Positions 1,583 through 33,349 of a stretch of 64,000 nt of DNA are shown one piece after another; position 1 is the stretch's first letter; the number at the start of each line of letters is the position of its first letter. The DNA is taken from NCBI GenBank assembly GCA_965205865.1, contig CBDBHR010000029.1, positions 480,001 through 544,000 on the forward strand. Reading direction: 5' to 3'. The notes below the pieces were generated by a model. That model had not been told where the DNA came from, did not search any database, and worked only from the letters and a program-made list of their open reading frames with translations. The stretch comes from a bacterium. Its GTDB lineage: Bacteria; SAR324; NAC60-12. Both the position numbers and the translations under genes were made by a program.

Positions 1583-3571
1583 ATGAAACTAATCATTAGA
1601 GAAATCGTCGAGAACCTGCTTTCGGGAATCAAAGCAGGTTTTAATAATCTTGTTTTTAATCAAAAAGCAGAAAGGAGTACCATGAATCGTCAAAATAGTA
1701 GAAACATCGTCGAGAACGTGCTTTCGGGAATCAAAGCAGGTTTTAATAATCTTGTTTTTAATCAAAAAGCAGAAAGGACTAAGATGAACCGTAAAAAAAG
1801 CAGCTCAAAATTAAGCGCAACCCTGCTGGCTCTCATCCTGGGAGCAAGCGTCTTCATGGCTGGCCAGGTCTGGGCAGCCGAGTACGTGACGGACCCCACC
1901 AACGGCAAGGTGGTGACCGCACCCGAGTATGGCGGGACATTGACCTTTGCCAAGGCGTCCATGTCGCCGCATACTTCCGTCTATCACCATGACTGGGCGG
2001 CAGAGCCCGTCAGTGGCGTTTTAGAGAAGCTAGGCATCATGGACTGGGCAATAGATAGGGACAAATATAGCTTTAGAACAACGTACAAGCCTGAGTTTGC
2101 CCTAAGAGGGCACCTGGTGGAAAGCTGGGACACACCCGACCCGCTAACGTATATCTTCCACATCCGTAAGGGCGTTCAGTGGCATGATAAGGCGCCGATG
2201 AACGGGCGGGAGCTAACTGCGTATGATGTCGAATATCACTATCACCGTTACATTGGTATAGGCAGCGGCTTCACCGAACCTGCTGAACGTTATAGCAAGT
2301 GGCCATTCGTTACTCTGCCATACGAATCGATAACGGCCACCGACAAGTATACCATGGTCGTTAAGCTGAAGAGCCCGGACCCCGAAGCGCTAATGACCCT
2401 TACCATCAACAACAAGTTGTTTATAGAACCACCCGAGGTCATAAAAGAAAAGGGCGACCTTTTGGACTGGAGGAACATGGTCGGCACCGGACCCTTTGAG
2501 CTGACCGACTGGGTCGACGGCGTCTCTTATAGCTATACCAAGAACCCCAACTACTGGGGCTACGACCCAAAATATCCGGAGAACCGCTTGCCCTATATTG
2601 ACGGGCTAACGGGCCTGATTATGCCGGATGAAGCAACACGTATAGCGGCACTACGCTCGGGTAAGATTGATGCGCTGGCTATGTTTGTCGGCTATGGTCA
2701 AATAGCTTCTATGGACCAGGTAGAGAGCCTTAAGAAAACCAATCCCGAACTGAAGATGGAGTGGATGTCATATCGGTCGATGACGTCTTGGACTGTTAAC
2801 ACATCCAGGCCGCCCTTTGATGACGTCAGGGTGCGGCACGCATTGCAGATGGCGCTGGACCTCGAGACAATTAACAACACTTACTGGGGAGGGCAGGCAA
2901 TGACGACACCTCAGGGGTATATGGGGGCAGGTTTTACCGGGTATGTCACCCCATATGAAGATTGGCCCGAAGAGATCAAGGGATACTATTCCTACGATCC
3001 GGAAGGGGCGGAAGCGCTGCTTGATGCGGCCGGATATCCCCGCGGCGCGGACGGTATTAGATTTAGTGTAGTCTTGGACGTAGGCGTACCCATTTGGGAT
3101 CCAGCCTATAACCAATTAGCCGCGGACTACTGGGCCAAGATTGGCGTTGATGCAAAAATCGTCACCGGCGAGTGGCCTGTTATTGCCGCACGCGTAACGG
3201 GAGACCGTGATTTTGACATGTACGCTTTTATTTCGGGAAACGAGTGGCACCCTTTGTCACAGGCACAACAGATGTTGTCGGACAGTACTACCAACTGGCC
3301 CGCAGTCCGGGACGCTGTTTATGAGGCCATGGTTGCAGAAGCCGCAGCCGCTACCACCACTGAGGAGCGGCAAAGGCTGTTCAAACATATAGATGCGTAC
3401 ATTACGGAAAAGCACTGGTATATATGGGGTTCCAGAGTTCCGCAGTTTAACGTGTTCCAGCCGTGGCTGGTAGGTTACGCCGGTGAAAGCGAATTGGGAG
3501 AGACTGATCGCCTACTAATCGCGGCCCGCGTCTGGATTGATAGTGCTCTGAAAAAAGAAATGGGTCATTAG
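1583..3571 (+). CDS. Family 5 (Dpp/Opp/Nik) ABC solute-binding protein; alternative in-frame starts at 1682 and 1784
   Basis: PEYGGTL, VGTGPF, PFDDVRVRHALQMALD motifs; signal peptide ending ...QVWAA. Confidence 0.92.
   Translation: MKLIIREIVENLLSGIKAGFNNLVFNQKAERSTMNRQNSRNIVENVLSGIKAGFNNLVFNQKAERTKMNRKKSSSKLSATLLALILGASVFMAGQVWAAEYVTDPTNGKVVTAPEYGGTLTFAKASMSPHTSVYHHDWAAEPVSGVLEKLGIMDWAIDRDKYSFRTTYKPEFALRGHLVESWDTPDPLTYIFHIRKGVQWHDKAPMNGRELTAYDVEYHYHRYIGIGSGFTEPAERYSKWPFVTLPYESITATDKYTMVVKLKSPDPEALMTLTINNKLFIEPPEVIKEKGDLLDWRNMVGTGPFELTDWVDGVSYSYTKNPNYWGYDPKYPENRLPYIDGLTGLIMPDEATRIAALRSGKIDALAMFVGYGQIASMDQVESLKKTNPELKMEWMSYRSMTSWTVNTSRPPFDDVRVRHALQMALDLETINNTYWGGQAMTTPQGYMGAGFTGYVTPYEDWPEEIKGYYSYDPEGAEALLDAAGYPRGADGIRFSVVLDVGVPIWDPAYNQLAADYWAKIGVDAKIVTGEWPVIAARVTGDRDFDMYAFISGNEWHPLSQAQQMLSDSTTNWPAVRDAVYEAMVAEAAAATTTEERQRLFKHIDAYITEKHWYIWGSRVPQFNVFQPWLVGYAGESELGETDRLLIAARVWIDSALKKEMGH
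1604..1792 (+). repeat. 102-bp-period tandem duplication of the 5' leader, each copy ending in RBS and ATG
   Basis: ATCGTCGAGAAC(C/G)TGCTTTCGGGAATCAAAGCAGG...GCAGAAAGGA occurs twice, followed by ATG at 1682 and 1784. Confidence 0.95.
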
Positions 3572-3583
3572 GGGTTTTAGGGA

Positions 3584-3611
3584 GAGCTGGGTGGCTCAAG
3601 CTTCCCAGCTC
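3584..3611 (+). terminator. Intergenic stem-loop between SBP and permease genes (mRNA stabiliser or attenuator)
   Basis: GAGCTGGG...CCCAGCTC stem; homologous hairpin at 50620-50661; no U-tract. Confidence 0.55.
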
Positions 3612-3649
3612 CCATACTCATTAAGCAATTAGGGGACGCGGTATCTGAC

Positions 3650-4606
3650 ATGAGAGCCTATATCATCAGGCGGTTATTGCTGATAATCCCCACCTTGTTT
3701 ATACTGAGTATCATAGTCTTTCTCTCGGTCCGCTTCATCCCCGGCGATGTAATAGACGTAATGCTGGCTAGAATGGAAGGGCTTGTCGGTGAGATTGACC
3801 GTGAAGCTGTTGAGCATATGCTGGGATTAGACGTGCCTGTCTACGTACAGTATGGACGCTGGATAGGAGGTATTTTCCGGCACGGCACTCTTGGCGAATC
3901 ACTGTATGGCCATTGGTCGGTGGAAGAGAAGATAATAGGTAGATTGCCGGTGACCATTGAGCTTGGTCTCCTGGCAATCGTAATCGGGCTGGTGATAGCG
4001 CTACCCGTCGGCATCTACTCGGCGATCCGCCAGGATACGGCCGGCGACTACGTGGGGCGCTCGGTCGCCATCATCGGCCTGGCAACGCCTAACTTCTGGC
4101 TGGGAATGATGATCATAATCTTCCCGGCAATCTGGTTCGGCTGGTCGCCGCCGATGAAGATGGTTCCTTTCACCGAAGACCCCCTGGGCAATCTAGCGGT
4201 GTTCCTCATTCCCAGCGTGATTCTGGGTACGGCCATGTCTGCAGCCACCATGCGCATGACGCGCACCATGATGCTGGAGGTGCTAAGGCAGGACTATATC
4301 CGCACCGCCTGGTCCAAGGGGCTCAAGGAGCGGATCGTGATTATCCGGCACACCATCAAAAATGCCCTCATCCCGGTGGTGACCCTGATCGGCCTGCAGT
4401 TGCCGATCCTGGTCGGGGGTGCCGTGATCATGGAGAACATCTTCAACCTGCCGGGGATCGGCCGGCTCATGCTGGATGCCCTGCAAAACCGAGACTACCC
4501 GATGGTTTCCGGAATCAACCTGTTTTTCGCCAGCGGCGTGGTGCTGCTCAATCTCATGATCGACCTGATTTATCCCTATCTGGACCCGAGAGTGCGGTAT
4601 GAGTGA
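3650..4606 (+). CDS. dppB: Peptide/nickel ABC permease, DppB/OppB-like
   Basis: YIIRRLL N-terminus; EAA-loop region RTMMLEVLRQDYIRTAWSKG; DPRVRY C-terminus. Confidence 0.92.
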   Translation: MRAYIIRRLLLIIPTLFILSIIVFLSVRFIPGDVIDVMLARMEGLVGEIDREAVEHMLGLDVPVYVQYGRWIGGIFRHGTLGESLYGHWSVEEKIIGRLPVTIELGLLAIVIGLVIALPVGIYSAIRQDTAGDYVGRSVAIIGLATPNFWLGMMIIIFPAIWFGWSPPMKMVPFTEDPLGNLAVFLIPSVILGTAMSAATMRMTRTMMLEVLRQDYIRTAWSKGLKERIVIIRHTIKNALIPVVTLIGLQLPILVGGAVIMENIFNLPGIGRLMLDALQNRDYPMVSGINLFFASGVVLLNLMIDLIYPYLDPRVRYE

Positions 4607-5540
4607 ATCAAAGCGACGGGGCCGGCTGGCGGATTTCTTCATCAGGCTTCTCAAGGAGAAGCCGCTCGGTACTGTCGGCGGGATTATCACATTGATATTG
4701 ATTCTGGTGGCGATCTTCGCTGATGTTCTGGCCCCTTATCCACATGATGAGATACACGTGGTAGACAGACTGCAGGGCTCATCAGCCCAATATATGCTGG
4801 GTACCGACCAGCTGGGGCAAGACCTCTTGAGCCGCATTATCCACGGGGCTCGTGTTTCGTTAACTGTCGGTCTGGCCGCGACGGCGCTCAATGTGCTCAT
4901 CGCAGCCCTGATCGGCGGCACTTCCGGATTCCTTGGGGGGAAAGTGGACCTGGCTGCGCAACGCTTTGTCGATGCCTGGATGGCCTTTCCGGGACTACTG
5001 CTCTTGCTGACCATCATGTCCATCGTGGGACAGGGGCTCCTCCAGATCATCGTGGTCCTGGGGGTCACCGGAGGCATCGGCGGCTCCCGAGTCATCCGAG
5101 GCGCCGTGGTGGGCATTAAAGAGAATGACTATTTTCTGGCAGCCAGGGCCGTGGGCACCCCCACGCGCCATATCCTGATCCGGCATGTCCTGCCCAATAT
5201 CATGGCGCCCATCATCATCATCTTCTCGATCAACATTGGCGGAGTTATCATTGCCGAGGCGTCGCTGAGCTTCCTCGGATACGGGCTGCCCTTCGAGATA
5301 CCCAGCTGGGGTGGCATGCTCAGCCGGGAAGGACGCCTGTACATGGAGATGGCGCCGTGGCTGGCTTTCTGGCCCGGTATCTTCCTGACGATTACCGTCT
5401 ACTCCCTCAACATGTTCGGCGATGCCCTCAGGGACCTGCTCGACCCCCGACTGCGCGGCGGAGAGGGCAGTTACGGCGCCGCAGGGAGGAAACGCAAACG
5501 AGGATTTCTCGCCCGGCTGATCAACCCCTTCAAATGGTAA
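4599..5540 (+). CDS. dppC: Peptide/nickel ABC permease, DppC/OppC-like
   Basis: LGTDQLGQDLLSR, RHVLPN, EASLSFLG, PSWGGML, GDALRDLLDPR motifs. Confidence 0.92.
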   Translation: MSESKRRGRLADFFIRLLKEKPLGTVGGIITLILILVAIFADVLAPYPHDEIHVVDRLQGSSAQYMLGTDQLGQDLLSRIIHGARVSLTVGLAATALNVLIAALIGGTSGFLGGKVDLAAQRFVDAWMAFPGLLLLLTIMSIVGQGLLQIIVVLGVTGGIGGSRVIRGAVVGIKENDYFLAARAVGTPTRHILIRHVLPNIMAPIIIIFSINIGGVIIAEASLSFLGYGLPFEIPSWGGMLSREGRLYMEMAPWLAFWPGIFLTITVYSLNMFGDALRDLLDPRLRGGEGSYGAAGRKRKRGFLARLINPFKW

Positions 5541-5672
5541 GCGGATAAAAGGAGACCGTCCCTTTTTCCTTCCTGAGAATCGCTTTTTTTTCTTCTGCGT
5601 AAAGTTTGGGCCATTTGGTAGAATCAGGCCCGAGAGAACCTCTTCCTTTTTTTAGACCTGGATTATTCATAG

Positions 5673-5794
5673 TGCTAACGCAGAGGTGAGGAGTGGCGGG
5701 GACGAGAACCTTTGAAATCAGCACTATCCTTCAACTTACTAAAATGTATCGAAAAAGCACCTATCCCGCCATCGCATCCACCGTTTTGTTAGCC
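5673..5794 (-). other. Integron attC-like recombination site
   Basis: On the minus strand GGCTAAC (contains the toxin stop)...GTTAGCA; arms GGTGGATGCGATGGCGGGA / TCCCCGCCACTCCTCACC pair imperfectly with an extra base in the first arm; 122 bp. Confidence 0.7.
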
Positions 5795-18481: not shown

Positions 18482-21172
18482 TTATATTGTCGCATCTTTG
18501 TATGCCTTGAATCCATCAAGCAGTTGCAGAAATGTCTTCGGTGAATACTTCTGAAAGCCTTCTTCGTCAACATAAACGAAATCATACGAAACAGCAGACC
18601 GGGTTTTGTTGATATCCTCGCACCACTGTCGCAGTCGCTGCATCTTCGGTGATACATGCAGGTCTACTTGTCCTTTGGTCTCGGCGACAATGACGTGTCC
18701 ATCATTCAGTTTCACCAGAAAATCCGGGTAATAATTGGCGATTTCGCCATCGGCATTGACATAGTCGAGTGTGAAATGCACGGCCAGGTAATTTTTCGCG
18801 TAGGACACGACGTCGGGGCAGTTTTCCAGAAATCCGGCGAATTCCAGTTCAAATCGACTATCTCCAATGATTTTGTTGAATACGGATTTTTTAGGAATCA
18901 AATAGGCCTGGTCTTTGACCACGAAAGGCCGCGTGTGCCGTATTAGGATGGTGTCACTGATCTGCGCGTTGCCCTTGTCATGAACCGTGAGCGCGTTGAT
19001 AGCGTTTTTGAAGGATTGGATTACGGTTTTTGTGGCAACAGGTTCCGACAGATTGCGTAAGGTATTGGCTGAATTCAACTCCACCGTTCTGCCGAACAGT
19101 TTGTTCTGCGCAAAATCTTTCACCTTCCCGTAGAGCACGTCATAACCGCTAACCAGTCGCAGTTCATTCATGAGGGTGCGGGCAAAATAACCGATCACGC
19201 CGCGATAATCCGCGACACCGGCACCATCCAATTGCGTGGTGTGGGTAATCGCACCCGTCGTGATGTCTCTGAAAACGATCTCCCGTTGCTCCTCTTCACT
19301 GAATTGTTGATACGGCACGAACACAAAATCCAATCGGGCAACGTTCAGCTTCGCCAAATTCCCGTACTCCCGGTAAATGCGCCGCGTAAGTACGGGAATG
19401 GCAATGTCCAGCGCATCGATATCCTTTCGGGGATTGTCTTCGTCCACTTCAACCACGAGCGGCGTTTTGGGCTTGGTGTCCGCACCCATGGCCTGACGCT
19501 TCAATTCCACGCCTTCCGCTTGAATTGACTCGACGAATTCCATAAAGGCGTCGGTGCCGATGACGCTGACCGCTTCATCCTCCGTGTCGGGGTACATCTT
19601 GCGAAGCCCGCGCCCCAAGGTCTGTTCGGGTAAAATGTTACTCTTGGCGGAATAGGCTCGTAGTCCCACAATGGTAGTGACGTTCCTGACGTCCCAACCT
19701 TCCTTGAGCACCAGCACCGAAACAATGGCCTTGTACGGGCTTTCTTGCGAATCGATGGTATTCGCCAGTTTACGAAGTTGTTCGAGTTCTTCTTTCTTCT
19801 TTCCGGACGTTACTTCGGAGATTTCGCCATTTTGTTTGGTGTGAATCACCAGCACGGCGTTTTTCAGATCGGGATAGCGGTTTTCGAGATAGTCTGCCAC
19901 GTCATCGCAGTTCCGGGTGTCATCGGTCATCACGAACAGAATGGCTTTCCGGCCCATCTTTTCATGTTCCGCATACGCCTTACGCCATTCGACGACGCCG
20001 AGTTCGAGGTAGTCTGCGTATTTCTCGGTATACTTCGCGCTTTGCCGCTCGGTGAGTTTGGCTCGGCTGGGAGCATCGGGAAGTACCGGATGCTTGACCA
20101 CGTTTTGCGAGATCGCTTCCACGAGGGGGTAGTCCGCCACCGTCTGTACGAAAATCGCTCCGTTGTTGTGCCGGGGGGTTGCGGTTACGTCCACTTGCAA
20201 GGCCAGTGCGCTCTCTTTCTGTAACAAGCGGTTGTGAATGTCTTCGATGGACTTGAACCAAGCCAGCTTCGAATCGTGGAGATGGTGCGCTTCGTCGTTC
20301 AACACCATCAGTTCATCGACGTCGCGCACGATCATCCCCAGGTCCACCCGAGAATCCGTGGTTGCGCCCACAGGTCGTTTACCCAGGAAGTATTCCATGC
20401 TGTTTTCGTCATCGGGTGATGGCAAGGAGTCGTCACTGGAATAGACGCGGTGGATGTTACTCAGAAAAATATTGCCGGTGGCTCGCGTGACGCGCACCTC
20501 GTCCTGCAAGTGCAGGGTCAGTTGAAAATCGTCACGCCAATTGCGAGCCTGGTAGCCGTTTTCGGGAAGCACCGGGTCGTGAAAGAAGACCCGCAATCCT
20601 TGAAAATCCCGGAAGATACGGTCCAGCACGATGATATTGGGAGCAATGACCAGGAAATTACGTGAGAGCTCGGAGCTTTGTTCGTACAGTTTATGGAAGA
20701 AACTCCAGGCAATCACCAGGCTCATCACTTTTGTTTTTCCCGTACCCGTCGCCAGTTTCACCACGAAGCGTCGCCAGCTTTCGTCGAACATTCCGGATGA
20801 AACAACACCGGAACTGTCAAAACGCATCAGGTCGAATTTGTCTTTCACTCCCACCACGTCGTGCAAGTAGATGATGGTTTCCAGTGCCTCGCGCTGGGCG
20901 AAGTAATACTGAAACTCCGCTATTCTGCCGTCAGCCTTTGGTAACAGGTGCCGTTCCTTGAACCACCAATTCAGCAGACTCTTGCTGGTATCGCTTGCCC
21001 CCAGGTAGCCGCTCTCCCGGAATTCCTTCACCTTGCGCCGAAGCTGCGCCACCAGAGGAGGCATCAGCTTGTCCATGTTGGTGTTACCCAAGGCCTCGCC
21101 GGCCGGGAACCAGCGGATATCCGGGTTGAGTATCTTGTGAGGAGACTTGGGGAAATCAGGATGAAGTGCCAT
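18482..21172 (-). CDS. res: Type III restriction enzyme Res subunit
   Basis: Walker A ATGTGKT, DEAHH, LKEGWDV, EQTLGRGLR; C-terminal PD-(D/E)xK YYPDF...AETKG. Confidence 0.92.
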   Translation of the reverse strand: MALHPDFPKSPHKILNPDIRWFPAGEALGNTNMDKLMPPLVAQLRRKVKEFRESGYLGASDTSKSLLNWWFKERHLLPKADGRIAEFQYYFAQREALETIIYLHDVVGVKDKFDLMRFDSSGVVSSGMFDESWRRFVVKLATGTGKTKVMSLVIAWSFFHKLYEQSSELSRNFLVIAPNIIVLDRIFRDFQGLRVFFHDPVLPENGYQARNWRDDFQLTLHLQDEVRVTRATGNIFLSNIHRVYSSDDSLPSPDDENSMEYFLGKRPVGATTDSRVDLGMIVRDVDELMVLNDEAHHLHDSKLAWFKSIEDIHNRLLQKESALALQVDVTATPRHNNGAIFVQTVADYPLVEAISQNVVKHPVLPDAPSRAKLTERQSAKYTEKYADYLELGVVEWRKAYAEHEKMGRKAILFVMTDDTRNCDDVADYLENRYPDLKNAVLVIHTKQNGEISEVTSGKKKEELEQLRKLANTIDSQESPYKAIVSVLVLKEGWDVRNVTTIVGLRAYSAKSNILPEQTLGRGLRKMYPDTEDEAVSVIGTDAFMEFVESIQAEGVELKRQAMGADTKPKTPLVVEVDEDNPRKDIDALDIAIPVLTRRIYREYGNLAKLNVARLDFVFVPYQQFSEEEQREIVFRDITTGAITHTTQLDGAGVADYRGVIGYFARTLMNELRLVSGYDVLYGKVKDFAQNKLFGRTVELNSANTLRNLSEPVATKTVIQSFKNAINALTVHDKGNAQISDTILIRHTRPFVVKDQAYLIPKKSVFNKIIGDSRFELEFAGFLENCPDVVSYAKNYLAVHFTLDYVNADGEIANYYPDFLVKLNDGHVIVAETKGQVDLHVSPKMQRLRQWCEDINKTRSAVSYDFVYVDEEGFQKYSPKTFLQLLDGFKAYKDATI

Positions 21173-21184
21173 AGATCATAGTGC

Positions 21185-21661
21185 TTAAAAACGCCATTTC
21201 TCAAGTTTCATGAATCCTTCGAGATCAACACAATCCACATCGAAGTGTTTACATACATTTGGAATTTGCGCTGCATTGGGTTTGTCTTTTTCGGTCGTTA
21301 CGACACAAGCATTTTCCAGGAATTTGGCCCGCGCAATAACAAATGGATCGGCGACCGGACGTCCTTGCAGCCGCTCCTTTTTGCGGATCATCATCTGGAA
21401 GTGAGGGACATTGAATATCTTCGTGACAATCGCTAGTTCTGCTGCAGTTGGCGTTATGAATACTTTTTCTCGATTCACCTTACACCAACTTGCCAAGGTG
21501 TCCTCGGCCGCCTTCAATTCGTTAAAGACTTCTCGCGTTGAAGTGATCCTACAGTCTTCAATCATCTCGTCAAAGTGTTTCCATAGCGAGGGAAATCGTT
21601 CGCGATAAAAGTGATTGAAAAGAATAATCAGCGGACCACTATCGAATACATAGACTGTCAC
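21185..21661 (-). CDS. PIN-domain protein, DUF4411-like
   Basis: YVFDSGPLI, EVFNEL, ADPFVIARA, VVTTE, IPNVCKHF; GTG start overlaps the upstream stop (GTGA). Confidence 0.88.
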   Translation of the reverse strand: MTVYVFDSGPLIILFNHFYRERFPSLWKHFDEMIEDCRITSTREVFNELKAAEDTLASWCKVNREKVFITPTAAELAIVTKIFNVPHFQMMIRKKERLQGRPVADPFVIARAKFLENACVVTTEKDKPNAAQIPNVCKHFDVDCVDLEGFMKLEKWRF

Positions 21662-22848
21662 GTCGTAGTCCCCTGATTGAACAACCATTCTTCCAATTGA
21701 GGCACATTTTTCGTTTTTAAGTCCAGAAAGTCTGCAGTTTGCTCGACGGTAATGCGCCCCTTGTGATAATGGCTGAAGACGGCTTCAATATACTTCTCAC
21801 CAAGATAAGAACCTTTGTTCCGATAATAATCACCTCCGGAACCACCACGTTCTTTTCGTTCATTCCACCATTGCCGCGTCTTCTTTTCGTAATCCTGCTG
21901 GCTGACTTGACCCCAATCGAGAAGTCGCCGCAAAATGGTTTCTCGACTCACACTATAAAAATCAGCCAATTCTTCAATTGTACTGTCAAGAATGGGCATT
22001 CCTGCTGAACGCGATTGGAAATCCGAAGAAGGCACCAGAAACTCGGAGGCAAATTGATTGCAAAGAATTTCTGTTTGTTTGTTGTCACCGGTCAAATGCT
22101 CAATATAATCGTCTCGCCAGGTATCCACTCCACCAGTTTGCATCAGTAAATGCGCCAGCTCATGGAACAGTGTAAAAATCTGCCGGGTCTTTGTATTGTT
22201 GTTGTTGACATAGATTACCGGAAAATTCACGTCATACATGCTGAATCCGGAAAAAGAATTGGCGTCAGGCTCCGTTTTCTTCTTTCCCGGGGGATTGAAG
22301 GTGTCCTTGAATACAAAAACACCATGATCTTCTAAAGCCATCCTCCAATGTTTAAAAGCGTCATCGGTATTTTGCCAACTCTGTTGATGAGTGAGTTGGA
22401 TGCCCAGATAGCCCCGGACTCTATCTGCCATTTTGGTAGCAGCAATAGAGGTGGTGAAGTCAAGATCACGCAGTATCAGGCTGTTTCCCGGATTCACGTT
22501 TTCATACAACTCAGAAAGATTCAGTTGTAATACCTTAGCTTTACGAAGAAGGTAAAGCATACGAGATGGGATGCGTTGCAACTCTTTTTCTGGCAAAGTG
22601 CGAAACGATTGTTCTATTGTTTCCTCTTCTGGTACTTCAGGGAAAAAGAATAGAGCAATAGGGCGTTTGTAGATATCGTATGCCAGGGTTTCCAACTGGA
22701 CATAGGTTGGTGATGCCTCACCACGTTCCCAAGCCTCTATCTCAGTCACTTTTTTCTTCATTCGCTTCGCCACATCCTTCAGTGAGAGATTCAGACTGAC
22801 ACGCGCCCAACATAGTACTTTTGGATTAATAGGAATTGGCTGGCTCAT
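21658..22848 (-). CDS. Xre HTH plus ImmA/IrrE (DUF955) zinc metallopeptidase
   Basis: N-terminal HTH (IEAWERGEASPTYVQL); FTLFHELAH HExxH; EILCNQFASEFLVP. Confidence 0.92.
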   Translation of the reverse strand: MSQPIPINPKVLCWARVSLNLSLKDVAKRMKKKVTEIEAWERGEASPTYVQLETLAYDIYKRPIALFFFPEVPEEETIEQSFRTLPEKELQRIPSRMLYLLRKAKVLQLNLSELYENVNPGNSLILRDLDFTTSIAATKMADRVRGYLGIQLTHQQSWQNTDDAFKHWRMALEDHGVFVFKDTFNPPGKKKTEPDANSFSGFSMYDVNFPVIYVNNNNTKTRQIFTLFHELAHLLMQTGGVDTWRDDYIEHLTGDNKQTEILCNQFASEFLVPSSDFQSRSAGMPILDSTIEELADFYSVSRETILRRLLDWGQVSQQDYEKKTRQWWNERKERGGSGGDYYRNKGSYLGEKYIEAVFSHYHKGRITVEQTADFLDLKTKNVPQLEEWLFNQGTTT

Positions 22849-22957
22849 ACTGTCATTGCCACAATAGTCATTGTACTATTACCAAGAATGTCCACCACGT
22901 TATTTGCCTCGAAATTGCATAATAGAAGTAGCGAACAATAGATTTAATTGTCACCAT

Positions 22958-23494
22958 TCAAACCAGCAAACGTCGATTCGCTGTCAGAACGGGTATTCCC
23001 CGACCTCTGAAATCAGCATCATTTGTCATCAGTGTCAATCCCTTGCTTTTGCAGAGTTCCGTTATAACCTGATCATTGAAGTCGGAATTACCTTGGGCAT
23101 AATCATTAAGCACATCATCAATTTTCAATTTGTCAAATCCACTGTCTATCTGTGAACAATGCTTCATAAAATTCTTGACATCGGCAGTAATATTTTGAGC
23201 AACTGGTTTGAAATATGAACTCTTGCGGAAATCTTTAAATTCTTTTTGCGTTGCTTTATTTCTCCATATAATTCTGGCATAGGTGTTAATAAACTCCGAA
23301 ATGATAAGGACATCAATGTAAATACGGCTTTTGGCTTTAAGAATACGCCTAAAAGCCTTAGAATAAACCCTCACGTGGTTGGGAGCCTTTGGACTTTGTG
23401 GTCCATAAAAATACAGCCAGATATTGGCATCCAGAAACAATTTGTCTTTGGAAGTAAAATTGTAATTGTTCACCCGTATTGCTTTATGCGTCAT
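22958..23494 (-). CDS. PIN-domain ribonuclease-like protein
   Basis: Acidic motifs LFLDANIW, ISEFIN, DFNDQVI, MTNDADF. Confidence 0.88.
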   Translation of the reverse strand: MTHKAIRVNNYNFTSKDKLFLDANIWLYFYGPQSPKAPNHVRVYSKAFRRILKAKSRIYIDVLIISEFINTYARIIWRNKATQKEFKDFRKSSYFKPVAQNITADVKNFMKHCSQIDSGFDKLKIDDVLNDYAQGNSDFNDQVITELCKSKGLTLMTNDADFRGRGIPVLTANRRLLV

Positions 23495-23849
23495 CGTCCT
23501 CATCCTCCAGCGTCTCGCGAACTACCTGGTCGAATCTCTGCGGATCCTTGAAATACATTTTGGCCGTGTCAACGACGCGCTTCAACAGTTCCCGATCATC
23601 TGGCTCTATGTCTTCCACCTTCAGCAGGGAACGAATTTGTTCTTCGCTGAAGGTCCCATACAATTGACCAATGGCGGCATTCAGAAAGGCCGAGGTCAAC
23701 GTAGAAACATTTCGAAATGAAAGTGCGACCTTAAAGTGCTCTTTAAGAGCGAAATCAAGGCGGTCATAGACTTTCTGACCGTCGCCGGAAGCCACGCACA
23801 GGGGGCTGCCCACTACTTCAAATATGGCTATTGTAATCTCTTTTTGCAT
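23484..23849 (-). CDS. STAS-like domain protein (DUF4325-like)
   Basis: GQKVY...VALSFRNVSTLTSAFLNAAIGQLY; AGGAGG RBS. Confidence 0.85.
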   Translation of the reverse strand: MQKEITIAIFEVVGSPLCVASGDGQKVYDRLDFALKEHFKVALSFRNVSTLTSAFLNAAIGQLYGTFSEEQIRSLLKVEDIEPDDRELLKRVVDTAKMYFKDPQRFDQVVRETLEDEDDDA

Positions 23850-23858
23850 AGTCACCTC

Positions 23859-24731
23859 CTAAAAAATGTCCTCTTCGGTTAGCTCGGAAGCAAGGGCGTA
23901 AGACTGTGTGTCCGCCGTATTGATTTCCACACTTACTACAGTACCGGGGAAAGGATAGTTTAACGTTGAGGTAAAAATTTCCCCTTTTTCTCGCTTCCAA
24001 AAACCTGTATCTGAAACAATCTGAATGCGGCCACCATTCAGGTCAATGAACTCACATAACAACTTCAGTCCCAATCCACCCGGAACATTGCCCTGCTTGG
24101 TCGTGTTATTGGCGTTGGTAGCCCAGATAATCGCCTTTTCCGACGAAAGTTCAAGTCCGGTATGGTCTATTATATTTTGACGCATACCCACTCCTAGATC
24201 AGCCACTGTAAAATCAAGACGATGTTTAGTAGGAAAAAACTGTCCACAACTAAAGATTCCTAACTTAGTACGCGAATGCAATACGGCATTGCTGAATATC
24301 TCAAAGATGCTCTCGCGGAATTTTTTTAACAACCCTGAAGTCATTTCAGGCATTTCGGAACGGTTTATAAACTCGTTTTCAATATAACCTGCGAAATAGC
24401 GGTCATCTTCAACATCAAATCGTTGATAGGAAATGGTCGTTCCCCAAGAATCCGAGATTTGCTGCCGACCATAGTGACTCAAGAATCCGTTTTTTGAAAG
24501 AATACGTTCAACTCCGGGCCGGATATTGAGCAAATTGATTGTGTTCAAATTGTTTCCCAAGAGGTAAAGTATTGCGCCAAGTGCCGCGCACATATCAGCA
24601 TCAAACCAATGAGTTGCGCTCATGTCAATTTCGACATCAGCAAAAAAACATTCTCTGGTCCGTGCATGGAGATACGCCAATTCTTTAAAACTTTCCTCGT
24701 CATGATGAATCACCGGTAGAGGGAATCTCAT
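23859..24731 (-). CDS. STAS-like N-terminus plus GHKL/HATPase (anti-sigma-kinase-like) protein
   Basis: [18 protein letters not shown]-box [12 protein letters not shown]1 VADLGVG, G2 GGLGL, G3 GTVV; no HisKA H-box seen. Confidence 0.82.
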
Positions 24732-26941
24732 ACGGTCACCTCCACGATCGTCATGGTGTCGTTACCAAAAATGTCCACCACTTTGACGGCGAGCTTGCGT
24801 CGTCCGGTCGGACATTCGTGGGCGACGCTGGTCAATTCCAACGTCCGGTCTTTTTTGGTACGGAAACTCTGCCACTCGTTCTCGAAGACGTAATCGCCGG
24901 TCCACTGTTCTTCCCACTGACCCGTTTCGGGATCTTGCGCGCGGATGATTTCACGTTTGCTCTCGAAGTCGAAATCCACCGACCAGTAATCGATCCAATC
25001 CGTCCAGTGCCGGGTCAGCATTTCGCGTTGGACGATCCCGTTCGCATCGATTCGCACTTTGACGATCTGTCCCTTTTCCACCACGATTTTACTACCGGCT
25101 TTCCTGTTCGCCGACAAGGACGTCTCGGCAACGGCAATCGAATCCTGCGAGTAGAACACCGAAAAATCGCTCAACTCCACCGCCACCGTGGGAGACGCGC
25201 CCTTCTTACCCGCACTGACATGTGGCTTGACTTCGATGAATGCCACGTCATGGAACACCACCTGATTGCGCTCCACCGCCCGCTTGTCGAATACCTCGGC
25301 GGGAATGTATTTGGGCGCGACGTCGATGCCCCTGGCACGAGCTTCGTCCAGCACGTTGGGAAACAGTCCCATCTCGAACTCGAAGCCGAGGATGTCCACC
25401 CTGGTGATGCGATTCTTGCGGCACTCGAGGATAATTTCTTCCACGTACAACCTGGTGACGGGTAGGTTCACCGGCCCCACCGCCACCAGCCGACCCGCTT
25501 TCCTGCCGTGGAAAGCGACGAAGTGCGCAATCTTTTCCGCTTGGTAGGCGCGCAGGATCAGGTCCAGGAAGGTGGCTTCCTTTTCTTGCAATTGCTTCTG
25601 CTGCTCGGCTTCGCGCAGGTTGGGATTGACGCCGATGTAGTGTTGCCGCTCGTACTTACCGAGGTTGAGGATTTCAAAGGCGCGGTAGTCCTTACCCTTG
25701 GCCTTGAGTCGACGCTGCACGCCGATCATGCGCTTGCGCGTGGTGTGGATGGCGAACTTGCCGAGATCGCTGCAAATCCACTTGCGCCCCAGTTTCTCCG
25801 CCACCGCCGCCGTGGTGCCGGAACCACAGAAGAAATCGGCGACCAGATCGCCTTCGTTGGAAGAAGCTTTGATGATGCGCTCGATGATTTCTGAAGGCTT
25901 TTGAGTAGGGTAACCAGTCCTGTCTTTAGCAACTTGATTTAACTGTGGAATATCGTCCCAATAATCCAAACATAATGTCCCATCCTTCATGTAATAGCGC
26001 ATTACCAATTCCGGGTTTGTCTTTTCCCAATCCGGTGACACATCACGTGCTCCTTTTATAGGACTATCTCTAATAAAACGCCCAATCAATCTATAAGGAC
26101 CTTTTTCATCTTCGTATTTGTATCTTGCTTTTTGCTCATCATTTAGTGGCTTCATAACCGATTGGAAGTTGTAGATCCAACTATTAGATTTTGTGTAAAA
26201 ATATATTGTGTCATGGCGCCTACCATAAGCAACCTTAGGGATTCGACCTCCTGTATAACACCATGAAATTTCGTTTCTAAATCCAGCTTTGTCATTGTCT
26301 CCACCTTTTCCAAAGATATCATCTAGCACTAACCGAATCATGCTATTTACACGAGGATCACAATGCACATAAATGCTTCCATCTTCGGCCAGTAGATCTC
26401 GCATGAGAATCAATCGTTCGTAGATCATAGCGATGAAGGAATCCGCGCCTTTGCCCCAGGTGTCGCGGTAGGCGATTTCTTCGAGGATGTTCGGTTTTTT
26501 GGTGAAGGTATCTCCGCCGATCTCGATATCCATGGAAAAATCAGCGCCGACGTCGAAGGGCGGGTCGATATAGATCAGTTTGAGGCCGCCCTGATTTTCG
26601 ATTTCCTCGCGCAGGGGTCCGTTCTTCAGGGAGGACAAAATCAACTTGTTGTCGCCCCAGATGAGCTTGTTGGTCCAGCCACTGAGTTGGCGCCCGCGCT
26701 CATCGAAGAGGGACATCTGGGTTTGCGTGTCCTCGGTTTTTTCCGCCCTCGGCTCGTCCACCTGTTCGATGGTCTGAAAAGGGAGCACGACGTGGCAGAC
26801 CTCGTTGGTTTTGCCGTTCCAGACCAATTCCACTTCTCGTTTGTCCTCAAACAGCAGAAAACGGTACTTCTCCGGCAAGGGTTTGTCAGCTTCCAGAAAA
26901 CGGATGATTTCCTGTTGTTCCTGTTCCGTCAGTCGTGGCAT
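24728..26941 (-). CDS. mod: Type III R-M DNA methyltransferase Mod
   Basis: IYIDPPF (motif IV) before DFFCGSGTT (motif I), beta-class order; YPTQKP. Confidence 0.92.
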
Positions 26942-27065: not shown

Positions 27066-27365
27066 TCAGAACAACGGTCTTGCAAAACGGTCGATATGTT
27101 CTTTCAATGGGGGGTGATGGATCAGTTCATACGCTTTGACGTCGACTTTATAAGGCAAACTGCTTTCTTGAAAGCAAGTCCACAAACGGTCATTCGTTGC
27201 TTCATCGAGTTTACCGTATAGCACCAGATCGATATCCGAATAACTCTTGTAAGTCCCGGTTGCCCTGGAACCAAACAAAGCTACGGATTCAACGGCAGGG
27301 GCGACGTCTTTGATAATTTCGCTGATCAAGCCGAGCTGCCTTTTGTTCAAACCATGAGCAATCAT
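27066..27365 (-). CDS. Minimal nucleotidyltransferase (MNT) antitoxin
   Basis: LFGSRATG...SDIDL...KVDV. Confidence 0.9.
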   Translation of the reverse strand: MIAHGLNKRQLGLISEIIKDVAPAVESVALFGSRATGTYKSYSDIDLVLYGKLDEATNDRLWTCFQESSLPYKVDVKAYELIHHPPLKEHIDRFARPLF

Positions 27366-27790
27366 CATTGCAACCGTCCATATTCTTCGGATAGTTTTTC
27401 ATACAACTCACCAAACAGGTTCAGATACTTTGCCTCTATTTGTTTTATAACGGAATCGAACTTACTGAAATCATAAGTATGACTCATTTTATTGCGCGCG
27501 TCCAAGGCGTTCATCCAGTCTTCTCCCTTGGACAGTAGTTTGGCAGCGACCGCTTCTTTAATTACGGCTCTCGGGGTGATTTGTTCAAAAACGACATTTT
27601 GGTTTTCCAGATAGTCTTTGACGGTCTTCCATGCGAGTTCCGTGCAGTACTCGAATCGTTGAATCAATCCTTCTTTGGCAAGTTGGTTCAGCTCTTCTTC
27701 TCGATAACTTTCCACCGCCTCTTGCAACAGAAAATACGCCCTCTTGAAATTATCGAATCGGTATTGCCAGCGTTTCTTTTCTGCCGTCAT
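27365..27790 (-). CDS. HEPN protein, HI0074-like
   Basis: GLIQRFEYCTELAWK; RNKMSH (Rx4H) motif. Confidence 0.9.
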   Translation of the reverse strand: MTAEKKRWQYRFDNFKRAYFLLQEAVESYREEELNQLAKEGLIQRFEYCTELAWKTVKDYLENQNVVFEQITPRAVIKEAVAAKLLSKGEDWMNALDARNKMSHTYDFSKFDSVIKQIEAKYLNLFGELYEKLSEEYGRLQ

Positions 27791-30267: not shown

Positions 30268-31491
30268 TATGGATCAGCCGTGCCCAACTCGCGCTGGCTT
30301 TAGCCTTTCCTTTGATCTTTTCCCTCTCCATTGGGCTCTCTCCTCTTTTTTCTTTTCTCTCCTTGCCTCGATAAGAACTGCTATAGATGCCATAATAATA
30401 AGTGATCGTTTCGTAGGGTGAGGGAAGATGGCCCTGCCAAAAGAGCCATAAACTCAAAGACTTCGTAATGGGCCTTCTTGGCGGAGGACATTTTGTTTTG
30501 TTTCTCATAAATTGTTACGGTGTTCTCCTCGGGATTATACTCCACTCTCTCTACGGAGATAGCCGCTCGGCTCATATATCTCGCAATTTTTTCAATACGA
30601 TCCCCATTGGCCCCATTTATTTTTTGTTCACTATGGACCTGAAAACCGGAGTTATACTGTGAACGGATGATTTCTTCATTTTTGTCATCCTGAGGGAACC
30701 GAAGGATCTTCTTGATTCCCATGAGATTCTTGCTTAGGCAGCCCCCTTAGCTCGGAATGACAGGTCTTTTGAAAAGTGAAATTTAAACCCGTTTAGAGTA
30801 TATGATTCCAGGACATCAACAGGTCGATGATTTCCTGGGTGATGATTTCCTGTTTGAATAAGATTGCCAACAGTCTTGCTCTGAATAGTTGTGCTATCAC
30901 ATCGGTAGAAATGGTAAACGGTTGGTAGAATGTATCGTCTTTGAGAATTCCAGCAAGAACCAGCGCATGGATGTGAGGATGAAAGTTGAAGAGAGAACCG
31001 TAGGATTGAATACAAAAGATGCCACCAGTATATTCGTCCTTCATGCCTAAGGTTTCGTGAAAATATTGTTTGATGGCAAAATTGGCACTTTGGATCAGCA
31101 ATTTTAGTAGTTTTCTGTTTCTGCGGAAATAGCCTCTCAATAATTTAGGGATCGTAAAGGTTATATGAAGGTGAGGAAACGGCTTGACGATTTCGCGGAC
31201 TTTCTCTGAAAACAGGATCGATCTTTTGGTCGCGCAACTGGGACAGATCATTCTTTTTTTGCAGGAAAACGCCACAAAAAAGTCGGTTCCACATTCACAC
31301 CTCACCCGAGCTACTCCGTTCTCAGGAATCCCACAGTCCAGATACGCGTAAATGGCTGACATGACATCTTTTCTTAGGTAGCCATAATCCTCCTCAAAGA
31401 GTTCCGGATAGTTCCTTTCAAACGCTTCAAAGTTGGCTTCAAGAATGCGATTGTATTCTGTTCTTTCCGGGTGTCTTCTCTTGTATATCAA
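30268..31491 (-). mobile_element. IS91-family (HUH/Y2) transposase pseudogene: MITE insertion, +1 G near 30431, 3' truncated
   Basis: Zn finger CECG...CKKRMICPSC, HPHIH, YMSR, YYGIYS. Confidence 0.88.
30655..30800. mobile_element. 146-bp IS630-type MITE with TA duplication and internal REP-like palindrome
   Basis: Ends TACTGTGAACGG / CCGTTTAGAGTA, TA on both sides; removing it restores transposase SWNH-NSGF. Confidence 0.88.
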
Positions 31492-31515
31492 GACATCATC
31501 CTCTTCAGTTAGCTA

Positions 31516-33349
31516 GATCCTAGCCGAAAAGGTATTTTTTAGAATTATATCTTTAACTTGAGGTTAAAAAGTGCCATAATTCATTGAAATAACTGTGAAT
31601 AACTTCAATATTAAGAATTATGGCACCCAAAATGAAACCATTCATTCGAGCAGAAAAACATCTTATTTTAAGCGCTCCTGATACAGAATTTGAAAATTTC
31701 TTATCAGAACTTGATCAATTGTCTGAGCGAGAGCCGGAGATATTGGACAAAATTGAACAGGATTTGGAGAAATACGCAAGAAATAAAAAGAAAGAGCGTT
31801 TAGAGGATAAACGATGGCAGGAAGCCCGGAATCCATGGCTTCCTCATCTTCCCGTAGAAGATGAGGAATTGAAGCCGGAAGAACTGAGGCTGGAAATAGG
31901 GTGTCCTCGGATGTCGGCTTTTTTAGTCTACCTTTTTATGATGATTCGGGGATATTTAGGAAGTATCAAATCCCAAACGGCCCAAATATTTCTTTCAGAG
32001 TCAATCACACTGCATCTGCTTCTGCTCAACCGTGGATTGAAAATGCCGGGAGCGAGTACAATCCTTGATAATGTCAATGCTGTCAGCAACGAGAGCAGAC
32101 AGTTTATTTTCGATGCTCAAATTCGAATGGTTCTCGATGAAGAGTTGGACGATTTTGATATTTTAAAACTGGATAGCACCTCTGTAAAAGGAAATACAGC
32201 TTGGCCTACTGATTCGTCGATATTGACTCGTCTCGTGGAGCGAAGCTACCATCGAGGGCGTTCCCTTGATACATTTGGAATCGCTGAGATCAGTGAAAGA
32301 AATTTTGATTTCCTCATCAAGGAGATGAATAAGCTCTCTAAGATGATGGCTTTTGAGACAGGTAAAAAGGACAGTAAAACGAAGCGAAAAAAACATTACA
32401 AAACCCTATTGAAGAAAGCTCAAAGCGCTCATGGGAAATTTTTAAAAGAAATGGCAAAGGTGGATATCCGTGCCCAAAAAGCTCTTCTCCCCCCTTCTCG
32501 GAAAACGCGTTTGATTCGCCTCATTGAAATGATGAATGAAGATATTTCTAATTTGCAACGGGTAATCATCTACTGTCATCAAAGAGTTTTTGAAGAAAAG
32601 AAGGTTCCTTCCACTGAGAAAGTATTGAGTCTTTCCGATCAGAGCTCGGCTTATATTCAAAAGGGAGATCGAGAAGCGCTTATCGGATATAAGCCTCAAT
32701 TAGGAAGGAGCGGAAATGGTTTTATTTCCGTGTTAATTACTCCGGAGGGCAATGCTGCTGATTCAGGGCAACTCGACCCTGCCCTTGTTGAACATTTGCG
32801 ATGCACCATCACCATTCCCTCTGAAGTGAGCCTTGATGATGGATATGCCAATCAGGCGATCAGAGAAAAGTGGATGGGCAAAGGCGTTAAGGTTTTTAGT
32901 ATTAGTGGGGCAAAGGGAAAAAAGATGACCCCGATTGAAGAATGGGAAAGTGAAATCTATTTGGAATCACGAAATGGAAGATCTGCTGCAGAGTCGTTGA
33001 TGTTTCATCTTAAGCATCGTTTCCATTTCGGACAAGTTATGCGCAGAGGGATTGAAAACGTTCGGGCAGAGTTGCTGGAAAAAGCATTAACCTATAATTT
33101 TTGCAAAATGATTGAGTTGAAAAAAAGACAACTCAAACAAGCGGCCTGAATATTCAATGGGGGAGTGTGAAATATGAGCAGGGGCGAGGAAAGTATGTCC
33201 AAAAAAGATTTTTTCCCTATAAAAACTGTGCTGTGGGCGAATAAAAAACAAAAATAAATCGTTTTCTCGTCATATTGAATCAAATAGAGAATCAAATAGA
33301 ATCAAATTGGTTACATTTACTATTTTCGAAACCCTTTTCGGCTAGGGTC
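31516..33349 (+). mobile_element. Insertion sequence (IS5-like/ISNCY DDE), apparently intact
   Basis: TIRs GATCCTAGCCGAAAAGG / CCTTTTCGGCTAGGGTC (16/17) enclosing one transposase ORF. Confidence 0.88.
31620..33149 (+). CDS. DDE transposase
   Basis: LDSTSVKGNTAWPTDS, SLDDGY, RSAAESLMFHLK motifs. Confidence 0.88.
   Translation: MAPKMKPFIRAEKHLILSAPDTEFENFLSELDQLSEREPEILDKIEQDLEKYARNKKKERLEDKRWQEARNPWLPHLPVEDEELKPEELRLEIGCPRMSAFLVYLFMMIRGYLGSIKSQTAQIFLSESITLHLLLLNRGLKMPGASTILDNVNAVSNESRQFIFDAQIRMVLDEELDDFDILKLDSTSVKGNTAWPTDSSILTRLVERSYHRGRSLDTFGIAEISERNFDFLIKEMNKLSKMMAFETGKKDSKTKRKKHYKTLLKKAQSAHGKFLKEMAKVDIRAQKALLPPSRKTRLIRLIEMMNEDISNLQRVIIYCHQRVFEEKKVPSTEKVLSLSDQSSAYIQKGDREALIGYKPQLGRSGNGFISVLITPEGNAADSGQLDPALVEHLRCTITIPSEVSLDDGYANQAIREKWMGKGVKVFSISGAKGKKMTPIEEWESEIYLESRNGRSAAESLMFHLKHRFHFGQVMRRGIENVRAELLEKALTYNFCKMIELKKRQLKQAA

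Follow-up and report, generated by a model that had tools for sequence, protein, structure and literature searches.

In a 64,000-nucleotide (nt) stretch of the genome of a SAR324 bacterium (assembly GCA_965205865.1, contig CBDBHR010000029.1, positions 480,001 to 544,000; hereafter the window), three tightly packed minus-strand genes very probably form a VapKSC module, a kinase-controlled, type II-like toxin-antitoxin/abortive-infection system, carried as cargo between the methyltransferase gene (mod) and the restriction gene (res) of a type III-like restriction-modification (R-M) operon. The window matches the published system in gene content and gene order: VapK, a protein with a STAS and a GHKL domain but without a helix-turn-helix (HTH); VapS, a STAS protein with a C-terminal region and a conserved Ser; and VapC, a PIN protein with a catalytic Asp. 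Unlike the published description, the window copy and about half of its subfamily are embedded between mod and res, where the start of vapK shares an ATGA with the end of mod. Taken alone, the triad is an ordinary representative of a system whose characterisation dates from 2026, and the value left lies in its R-M context.

VapKSC was described by Chambers, Rani, Min, Villa and Corbett (EMBO J 2026; PMC13373217; PDB 9z7o), whose article defines it by a CapK-like STAS-GHKL protein VapK, a STAS protein VapS bearing a short region at its C-terminus, plus a PIN protein, VapC, and catalogues 289 vapKSC operons, 36% of them with a PADLOC hit within 10 kb. For the system of Escherichia sp. E4736, its main text reports a VapS2VapC2 crystal structure in which VapS is the antitoxin bound to VapC and leaves the active-site Mg2+ of VapC in place. 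VapC was toxic and lost its toxicity by D28A, and its neutralisation by VapS was abolished by S48E and by deletion of the VapS C-terminus. When cloned alone in E. coli, Escherichia vapKSC gave ~2-log protection against phage Bas42, which was abolished by VapC D28A, VapS S48A and VapK F54A. The authors proposed that single-stranded DNA (ssDNA) triggers VapK, the conserved VapS Ser is phosphorylated and VapC is freed; activation by ssDNA was extrapolated from CapK biochemistry, the mutants and AlphaFold 3 modelling, VapK having proved insoluble (PMC13373217). Our literature searches for VapKSC, VapK and CapK returned no description other than this article and its preprint, and nothing on STAS-GHKL-PIN systems was found in a BREX paper or a jumbo-phage paper.

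The triad and the two R-M genes that enclose it are as follows, with protein lengths in amino acids (aa).

24728..26941, minus strand: mod (737 aa), opening the operon, type III-like DNA methyltransferase (Pfam N6_N4_Mtase, E 5.9e-41; PADLOC MTase_III, E 3.3e-109)
23859..24731, minus strand: vapK, STAS-like plus SpoIIAB-like GHKL kinase, 290 aa (structure model, Pfam and conserved residues)
23484..23849, minus strand: vapS, DUF4325/STAS predicted antitoxin, 121 aa from its ATG (Pfam DUF4325, E 3.1e-16; PDB 9z7o_A)
22958..23503, minus strand: vapC, PIN-domain predicted toxin, 181 aa (Pfam PIN, E 1.7e-8; PDB 9z7o_C)
18482..21172, minus strand: res (896 aa), closing the operon, type III-like restriction helicase-nuclease (Pfam ResIII, E 3.3e-15; PADLOC REase_III, E 1.2e-20)

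Together with a second cassette described below, these genes make up a packed minus-strand string that reads mod, vapK, vapS, vapC, HTH-ImmA, DUF4411 and res. The mod gene closes with GTA TGA, and the ATG of vapK lies inside the shared ATGA. The vapK gene ends at 23859 and is followed by a 9-nt spacer containing GGAGG and then by an ATG at 23849. The mechanically called open reading frame (ORF) of vapS reaches back to a GTG at 23855 (123 aa), but its product is likely 121 aa long because the ATG at 23849 is preceded by GGAGG. Between the PIN ORF and the STAS stop there is an overlap of 20 nt, which shrinks to 11 nt if the second ATG of the PIN ORF is used. As judged from its encoded domains, the host operon appears to be a type III-like R-M system with Mod and Res encoded together; Res also matched the NCBIfam model for BPTD_3080-family restriction endonucleases (E 9.2e-77), its 258.9 bits lying under the 800-bit cut-off. 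Counts of promoter-like sites (11 against 11.6 expected) and terminator-like sites (7 against 12.1 expected) were uninformative on operon structure. DNA contigs from two sequencing runs span res-DUF4411-ImmA-vapC and vapK-mod, but they add no independent support because they possibly come from the window's own source sample.

The domain architecture of VapK was resolved by structure modelling. An AlphaFold2 model of the 290-aa protein, built with 50 diverse homologues, had a predicted local distance difference test (pLDDT) score of 94.1 and a predicted template modelling (pTM) score of 0.91, and it was compared by VIA-align with 48,161 PDB representatives. Residues 96-275 matched SpoIIAB best (1l0o_A; Z 12.9, root-mean-square deviation (rmsd) 2.8, 136 residues aligned), while residues 1-89 matched STAS antagonists such as RsbV (6m36_B; Z 10.3, rmsd 1.9, 86 aligned). 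A Foldseek search of the PDB with the whole model returned generic GHKL matches only, with low TM-scores, and it was VIA-align that separated the two domains. Pfam HATPase_c was placed on residues 138-257 (E 5.6e-5, 24 bits). VapK has neither a dimerisation and histidine phosphotransfer (DHp) domain nor a His-phosphotransfer domain, Pfam detected no HTH, and the model opens with the STAS fold at residue 1. The GHKL ATP-site residues E144, N148, G180, G218, G219, G221 and G263 were invariant in 50/50 diverse homologues and D178 was conserved in 47/50; in the GHKL literature the boxes of this site are named N, G1, G2 and G3. The position of W42 was aromatic in 47/50 (34 W, 11 F, 1 Y and 1 H), and W42 may tentatively be proposed as a candidate counterpart of Escherichia VapK F54 and CapK W68, the conserved aromatic position of the predicted ssDNA site. 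A PADLOC hit of VapK to DrmA (E 3.8e-4) was discarded as generic GHKL similarity.

The product of vapS consists of a STAS domain, a helical region at the C-terminus and an acidic tail, and its best PDB relative was Escherichia VapS (9z7o_A, E 2.4e-15), aligned over residues 4-119 of 123 and thus including the C-terminal region. The Ser of its LTSAFL motif (S55 in the numbering of the 123-aa ORF, S53 counted from the ATG) was aligned with the Ser of FASPFF in 9z7o_A, which, by counting with an 18-residue tag offset, is Escherichia S48. Among 74 homologues from the fetched loci, this position was S in 73 and T in 1, and it is the predicted phospho-acceptor of VapS. For VapC, the best PDB relative was likewise the Escherichia protein (9z7o_C), with D25 aligned to the catalytic D28. 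Its acidic residues were almost uniformly retained, D25 in 59/61 homologues, E70 in 60/61 and D141, D144, D162 and D164 each in 61/61. In two near-identical loci (L044 and L045, triads at ~2593-4381 and ~2893-4681), D25 is replaced by Asn and VapC may be inactive; these triads lie ~5.4 kb upstream of a mod-KilA-N-res operon and outside that operon.

The original prediction for this locus, made from the raw sequence, had placed after mod three linked genes joined by an ATGA overlap, a 9-nt gap and a further overlap, and the coordinates and junctions agree. Its STAS-like plus GHKL protein without an H-box is borne out by the two folds, the invariant ATP site and the missing DHp domain, its DUF4325-like STAS protein with LTSAFL by the Pfam match and a Ser or Thr in 74/74 homologues, and its acidic catalytic set of the PIN protein by conservation in 59-61 of 61. 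The further proposal, a SpoIIAB/SpoIIAA-type partner switch with a PIN output serving defence, holds by homology to VapKSC, and the reasoning that led to it from raw sequence was sound. The statement that no characterised system has this architecture does not survive the article by Chambers et al. (PMC13373217): the prediction had itself made novelty depend on the triad matching no named system, and it matches one. The prediction had looked to PADLOC for any prior name, but none of the PADLOC (2023) and NCBIfam models matched VapS or VapC, and the name came from the literature.

The CapK-CapS pair resembles the triad in that an ssDNA-activated STAS-GHKL kinase phosphorylates a conserved Ser of a STAS partner and in that it often lies just downstream of R-M systems, but CapK has an N-terminal HTH and CapS is a transcriptional repressor with a winged HTH (wHTH) (PMC13373217), whereas the window proteins have no HTH and the output would be a PIN toxin. 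Neither VapK nor VapS has an HTH, and therefore the triad is not a CapK-CapS pair. SpoIIAB-SpoIIAA and RsbW-RsbV, the closest folds of the VapK domains, share the phosphorylation of a STAS Ser by a kinase, but in the window no sigma factor is involved, the kinase itself contains a STAS domain, and what its STAS partner would sequester is a nuclease. As in VapBC, a small protein would neutralise a PIN toxin by direct binding; in place of the DNA-binding VapB, however, the antitoxin is a STAS protein, and release would come by phosphorylation rather than proteolysis.

VapK belongs to a large and strongly conserved subfamily. Searching 1.84 billion cluster representatives (clusters at 50% identity) without a profile recovered 1,784 relatives with E <= 0.001, while 339 reached E <= 1e-30; a word-indexed search recovered 1,687, and its top 120 show 68-100% identity and are, with one exception, 289-293 aa long. 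A general scan of genome contigs for relatives gave 6 loci. Dataset EV3 of PMC13373217 lists two organisms, Poribacteria WGA-3G and Deinococcus gobiensis I-0, that link the window to the published catalogue, the link resting on organism names and not on IMG gene ids. The triad on a WGA-3G contig (L002) is 68/65/60% identical to the window VapK/VapS/VapC, and that on D. gobiensis plasmid P5 (L098), annotated as 'ATP-binding / STAS-like domain-containing / PIN domain-containing', is 34.9/40/29% identical with a kinase E-value of 3e-47.

We then surveyed gene neighbourhoods in metagenomes, using an alignment of close homologues as query, taking the best 80 of 140 confirmed relatives (60-77% identical) and calling flanking genes by tblastn with the window proteins; the resulting 81 rows hold 75 distinct VapK sequences, with some identical pairs. 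The STAS gene came next after the kinase gene in 72/72 evaluable loci and the PIN gene next in 60/60, so the juxtaposition of kinase, STAS and PIN is not chance, and the conservation of the triad that had been named as a check of the original prediction is borne out in these loci. A mod homologue (49-94% identical segments) ended no more than 200 nt from where vapK starts in 35/70 evaluable loci, with an overlap identical to the window's in 27 of these 35, and a res homologue began 7-354 nt past vapC in 25/54, mostly at a distance of 7-22 nt. Among the 49 loci evaluable on both sides, 23 had both mod and res, 2 had only res further downstream and 24 had neither.

The embedded state follows the kinase phylogeny to a large extent. 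A quick IQ-TREE reconstruction of the 81 rows, with support from the Shimodaira-Hasegawa-like approximate likelihood ratio test (SH-aLRT), split VapK at support 99 into two clades: that of the window (46 rows) with 38 embedded and 8 alone, and the other (35 rows) with 4 embedded, 27 alone and 4 unassigned. The embedded label needed 10 changes on the tree against 27.3 in shuffles, with 0/500 shuffles as low, and starred branches of the tree impose a minimum of 4 state changes. Pairwise identities of VapK and Res were correlated (Spearman 0.71, 66 pairs from 12 loci), the p-value being overstated because the 66 pairs are non-independent.

For the triads standing alone, we examined 107 of 120 flanking ORFs at 17 loci, having dropped 13 that were duplicate-locus, short or the triad's own extended ORFs. 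Defence- or toxin-type neighbours occurred at about half of these loci, including a helicase that bears an MTES_1575 nuclease domain, proteins of the ResIII-like, HIRAN, SIR2 and CHAT-AAA_16-TPR types, an Eco57I-type methylase with a SNF2 helicase, ParE, RadC and Uma2; the remainder had housekeeping neighbours.

This nesting appears to be what is new, so far as could be searched: the VapK branch of the window commonly sits between mod and res. In the main text of PMC13373217 a term search found neither 'type III' nor 'methyltransferase', and in 11 supplementary files, PDF appendices lying outside the search, it found no 'RM_type_III' entry. The WGA-3G entry in its Dataset EV3 has '--' as PADLOC hit, yet on the WGA-3G contig a mod and a res gene, each 72% identical to the window's, adjoin the triad; the published neighbourhood table seems to have missed the nesting, PADLOC having made no call for this R-M family. 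Literature on type III R-M and toxin-antitoxin systems yielded no description of a mod-vapKSC-res architecture.

The gap between mod and res is a cargo slot that collects toxin cassettes, and in the window it holds, besides the triad, a second and separate cassette and a piece of mod.

22846..22901, minus strand: remnant of a mod 3' end (tblastn to mod residues 720-737; DNA alignment)
21658..22848, minus strand: HTH_3 plus ImmA/IrrE (Peptidase_M78) protein, 396 aa (Pfam Peptidase_M78, E 6.5e-19; HTH_3, E 2.6e-6)
21185..21688, minus strand: DUF4411 PIN-like protein, 167 aa (Pfam DUF4411, E 3.8e-32)

The spacer of 109 nt between vapC and the HTH-ImmA gene terminates in the mod remnant, which by tblastn is identical to mod residues 720-737 at 13/18 positions (72%) and ends at 22848; at the DNA level it is ~80% identical over ~55 nt to the true mod 3' end and runs into the same GTATGA junction. 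The presence of this remnant before ImmA points to a different mod-cargo-res allele as the source of the ImmA/DUF4411 cassette, which recombination would have added behind vapKSC. The most economical interpretation is a stacking and exchange of cassettes through recombination between R-M alleles inside the conserved mod and res ends. The cassette (21185-22848) consists of the HTH_3-Peptidase_M78 gene followed by the DUF4411 gene, and it matches the HTH-DUF955 (ImmA) and DUF4411 combination that has been predicted to be a three-component toxin-antitoxin-like module (Matelska et al. 2017, PMC5499597), so that the DUF4411 protein is the predicted toxin partner of the HTH-ImmA protein. The latter also scored against the PADLOC models RmrA (E 3.3e-24) and capP (E 2.2e-21), and literature on RmrA and DUF4411 gave no explanation of the name RmrA.

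A res homologue occurred in 6/88 genomes of the window's phylum, including the window's own, and was absent from the same-genus genome (93% complete). Related R-M operons vary in their cargo. One has a plain mod-res with a gap of ~130 nt (L095), and in or beside the gap lie fragments of ImmA and KilA-N in L094, a DUF4258 and DUF2442 pair in L096 (8845-9659) and KilA-N in L044. DUF488 proteins follow vapC in L008 (7646-8608) and L014 (11886-12812), and the WGA-3G contig has a Mrr_cat nuclease gene between res and mod (4900-5784). In L004 (9803-11433) an ImmA/DUF4411 pair likewise comes after a vapK cut down to residues 1-110 and a fragment resembling mod. Short, repeated fragments of res 5' and mod 3' ends were seen beside embedded triads in L020 (3359-3643), L028 (2-166 and 1956-2254), L068 (1848-2112) and L085 (1877-2253), which would fit recurrent exchange of cassettes at these ends.

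By analogy with the Escherichia system, from which the binding of VapS to VapC, the toxicity, its neutralisation, the loss by a Ser-to-Glu change and the phage protection are carried over, the window module would work as follows. The antitoxin VapS would complex the VapC nuclease and keep it inactive. DNA damage or phage infection would generate ssDNA, which VapK may sense, and VapK would then phosphorylate the conserved LTSAFL Ser of VapS. Because this Ser sits in the VapS-VapC interface, VapS would dissociate on phosphorylation, and the freed VapC would cause growth arrest, presumably via RNA cleavage. The module lies as cargo in the mod-res gap, its vapK start codon lapping over the end of mod, and it is therefore co-inherited with restriction and probably co-expressed. 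Co-transcription with mod and res is inferred, and a functional link to restriction may exist.

A further step would make the slot-lodged VapKSC and the R-M system a single two-stage defence, in which restriction or its failure yields the ssDNA or damage signal for VapK and both layers are read from a single transcript and fire sequentially. We put this forward tentatively, as possible but rather doubtful; a coupling of restriction with a kinase module was raised as an idea for CapKS in the article of Chambers et al. (PMC13373217). The mod-vapKSC-res arrangement offers a natural system for probing how restriction may be coupled to a damage-sensing toxin.

Several points weigh against the assignment and should be set beside it. 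All functional steps for the window copy are borrowed by homology from a distant Escherichia system, and even there the kinase activity of VapK and its activation by ssDNA are without biochemical demonstration in the article as published (PMC13373217). The likeness of VapC to Escherichia VapC is modest (E 8e-5), and the HATPase_c score of VapK lies below the gathering cut-off of 26.4 bits. A predicted VapK-VapS complex scored 0.41 against 0.00 for the best of 3 controls, its runs shared at least 90% of contacts and the partner pLDDT was at least 80; the mark it passed is also passed by 116/157 solved complexes and 2/215 mismatched pairs, and scores of 0.60 or lower were reached by just 18/157 solved complexes together with both passing mismatches, so the prediction supports binding weakly. 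About half of the relatives do not adjoin this R-M family. Finally, two metatranscriptome runs contained only 6-7% of the sequence words, positions 21170-23388 were covered by no contig, and these runs yielded no transcript evidence.

Two alternative roles for the triad are compatible with its being a VapKSC module carried as R-M cargo. In the first, already suggested as a possibility in the original prediction, it would guard the R-M system, wired to Mod and Res so as to fire when a phage anti-restriction factor disables them or to be silenced by contact with them, instead of answering to DNA damage in general, which we consider unlikely. The conserved nesting with its recurrent stop/start overlap, the largely separate clade of embedded VapK copies and the joint divergence of VapK and Res would all fit such wiring, and so would a resemblance of layout to prrC among the hsd genes of EcoprrI. 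That type Ic R-M locus carries prrC, a gene for a latent RNA-targeting toxin, between its R-M genes, and PrrC is an ABC-ATPase anticodon nuclease silenced by the R-M enzyme itself; its proteins are unrelated to those of the triad. Against such wiring stand the 24 of 49 two-sided loci without this R-M family, the forced changes of state on the VapK tree and the protection of E. coli from phage by Escherichia vapKSC cloned alone (PMC13373217). Because that system protects alone and close relatives occur without R-M in about half of the cases, neither R-M nor the nesting is required for function. The same slot also holds DUF488, KilA-N, DUF4258/DUF2442 and ImmA/DUF4411, and such unrelated cargo speaks for a permissive insertion site and against specific wiring.

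In the second, the triad would mainly stabilise the R-M island by post-segregational killing, with phage sensing incidental. This would suit its toxin-antitoxin architecture, its place beside two more toxin-antitoxin-like pairs (HTH-ImmA/DUF4411 and MNT/HEPN) and a G+C content below that of mod in 14/14 loci (0.427 against 0.520 in the window), as well as its sporadic occurrence: a full-length VapK relative was found in 2/88 genomes of the window's phylum, and none in the same-genus genome. We nevertheless judge it improbable as the main role, since simple addiction needs no kinase input, the family was seen on plasmids in only 1/72,556 records, and the ~2-log phage protection by the characterised homologue depends on VapK and on the VapS Ser (PMC13373217). 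It is very improbable that the triad exerts CapK/CapS-like transcriptional control of res or its neighbours instead of switching a toxin: CapK/CapS is homologous and lies directly downstream of R-M in 88/443 cases (PMC13373217), but the 121-aa VapS has no HTH or wHTH and its alignment with the antitoxin VapS of Escherichia runs from end to end, VapK has the STAS fold from residue 1 in place of CapK's N-terminal HTH, and a PIN gene always comes next (60/60).

Beyond R-M loci, relatives of VapK were found in 3/50,697 phage records (MT837343.1, MK448860.1 and ON170258.1). The report on Francisella prophage KIRK gives a 293-aa hypothetical protein adjoining a 112-aa DUF4325 protein, by repressor and integrase genes (PMC7924643), and the kinase-STAS pair therefore appears to travel on prophages as well.

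On the other side of the operon, a nucleotidyltransferase (NTP_transf_2) gene paired with an NTase_sub_bind (HEPN-type) gene immediately precedes mod on the minus strand (27066-27790), and a 34-36% identical NTP_transf_2/HEPN-type pair is likewise upstream of mod in L008 (2213-3075). Split ORFs of an IS91-type transposase (Zn_Tnp_IS91, and Y2_Tnp in two pieces) together with a DDE_Tnp_1 transposase occupy 30381-33149, ~3.5 kb past the island, where the local G+C content drops to ~0.40.

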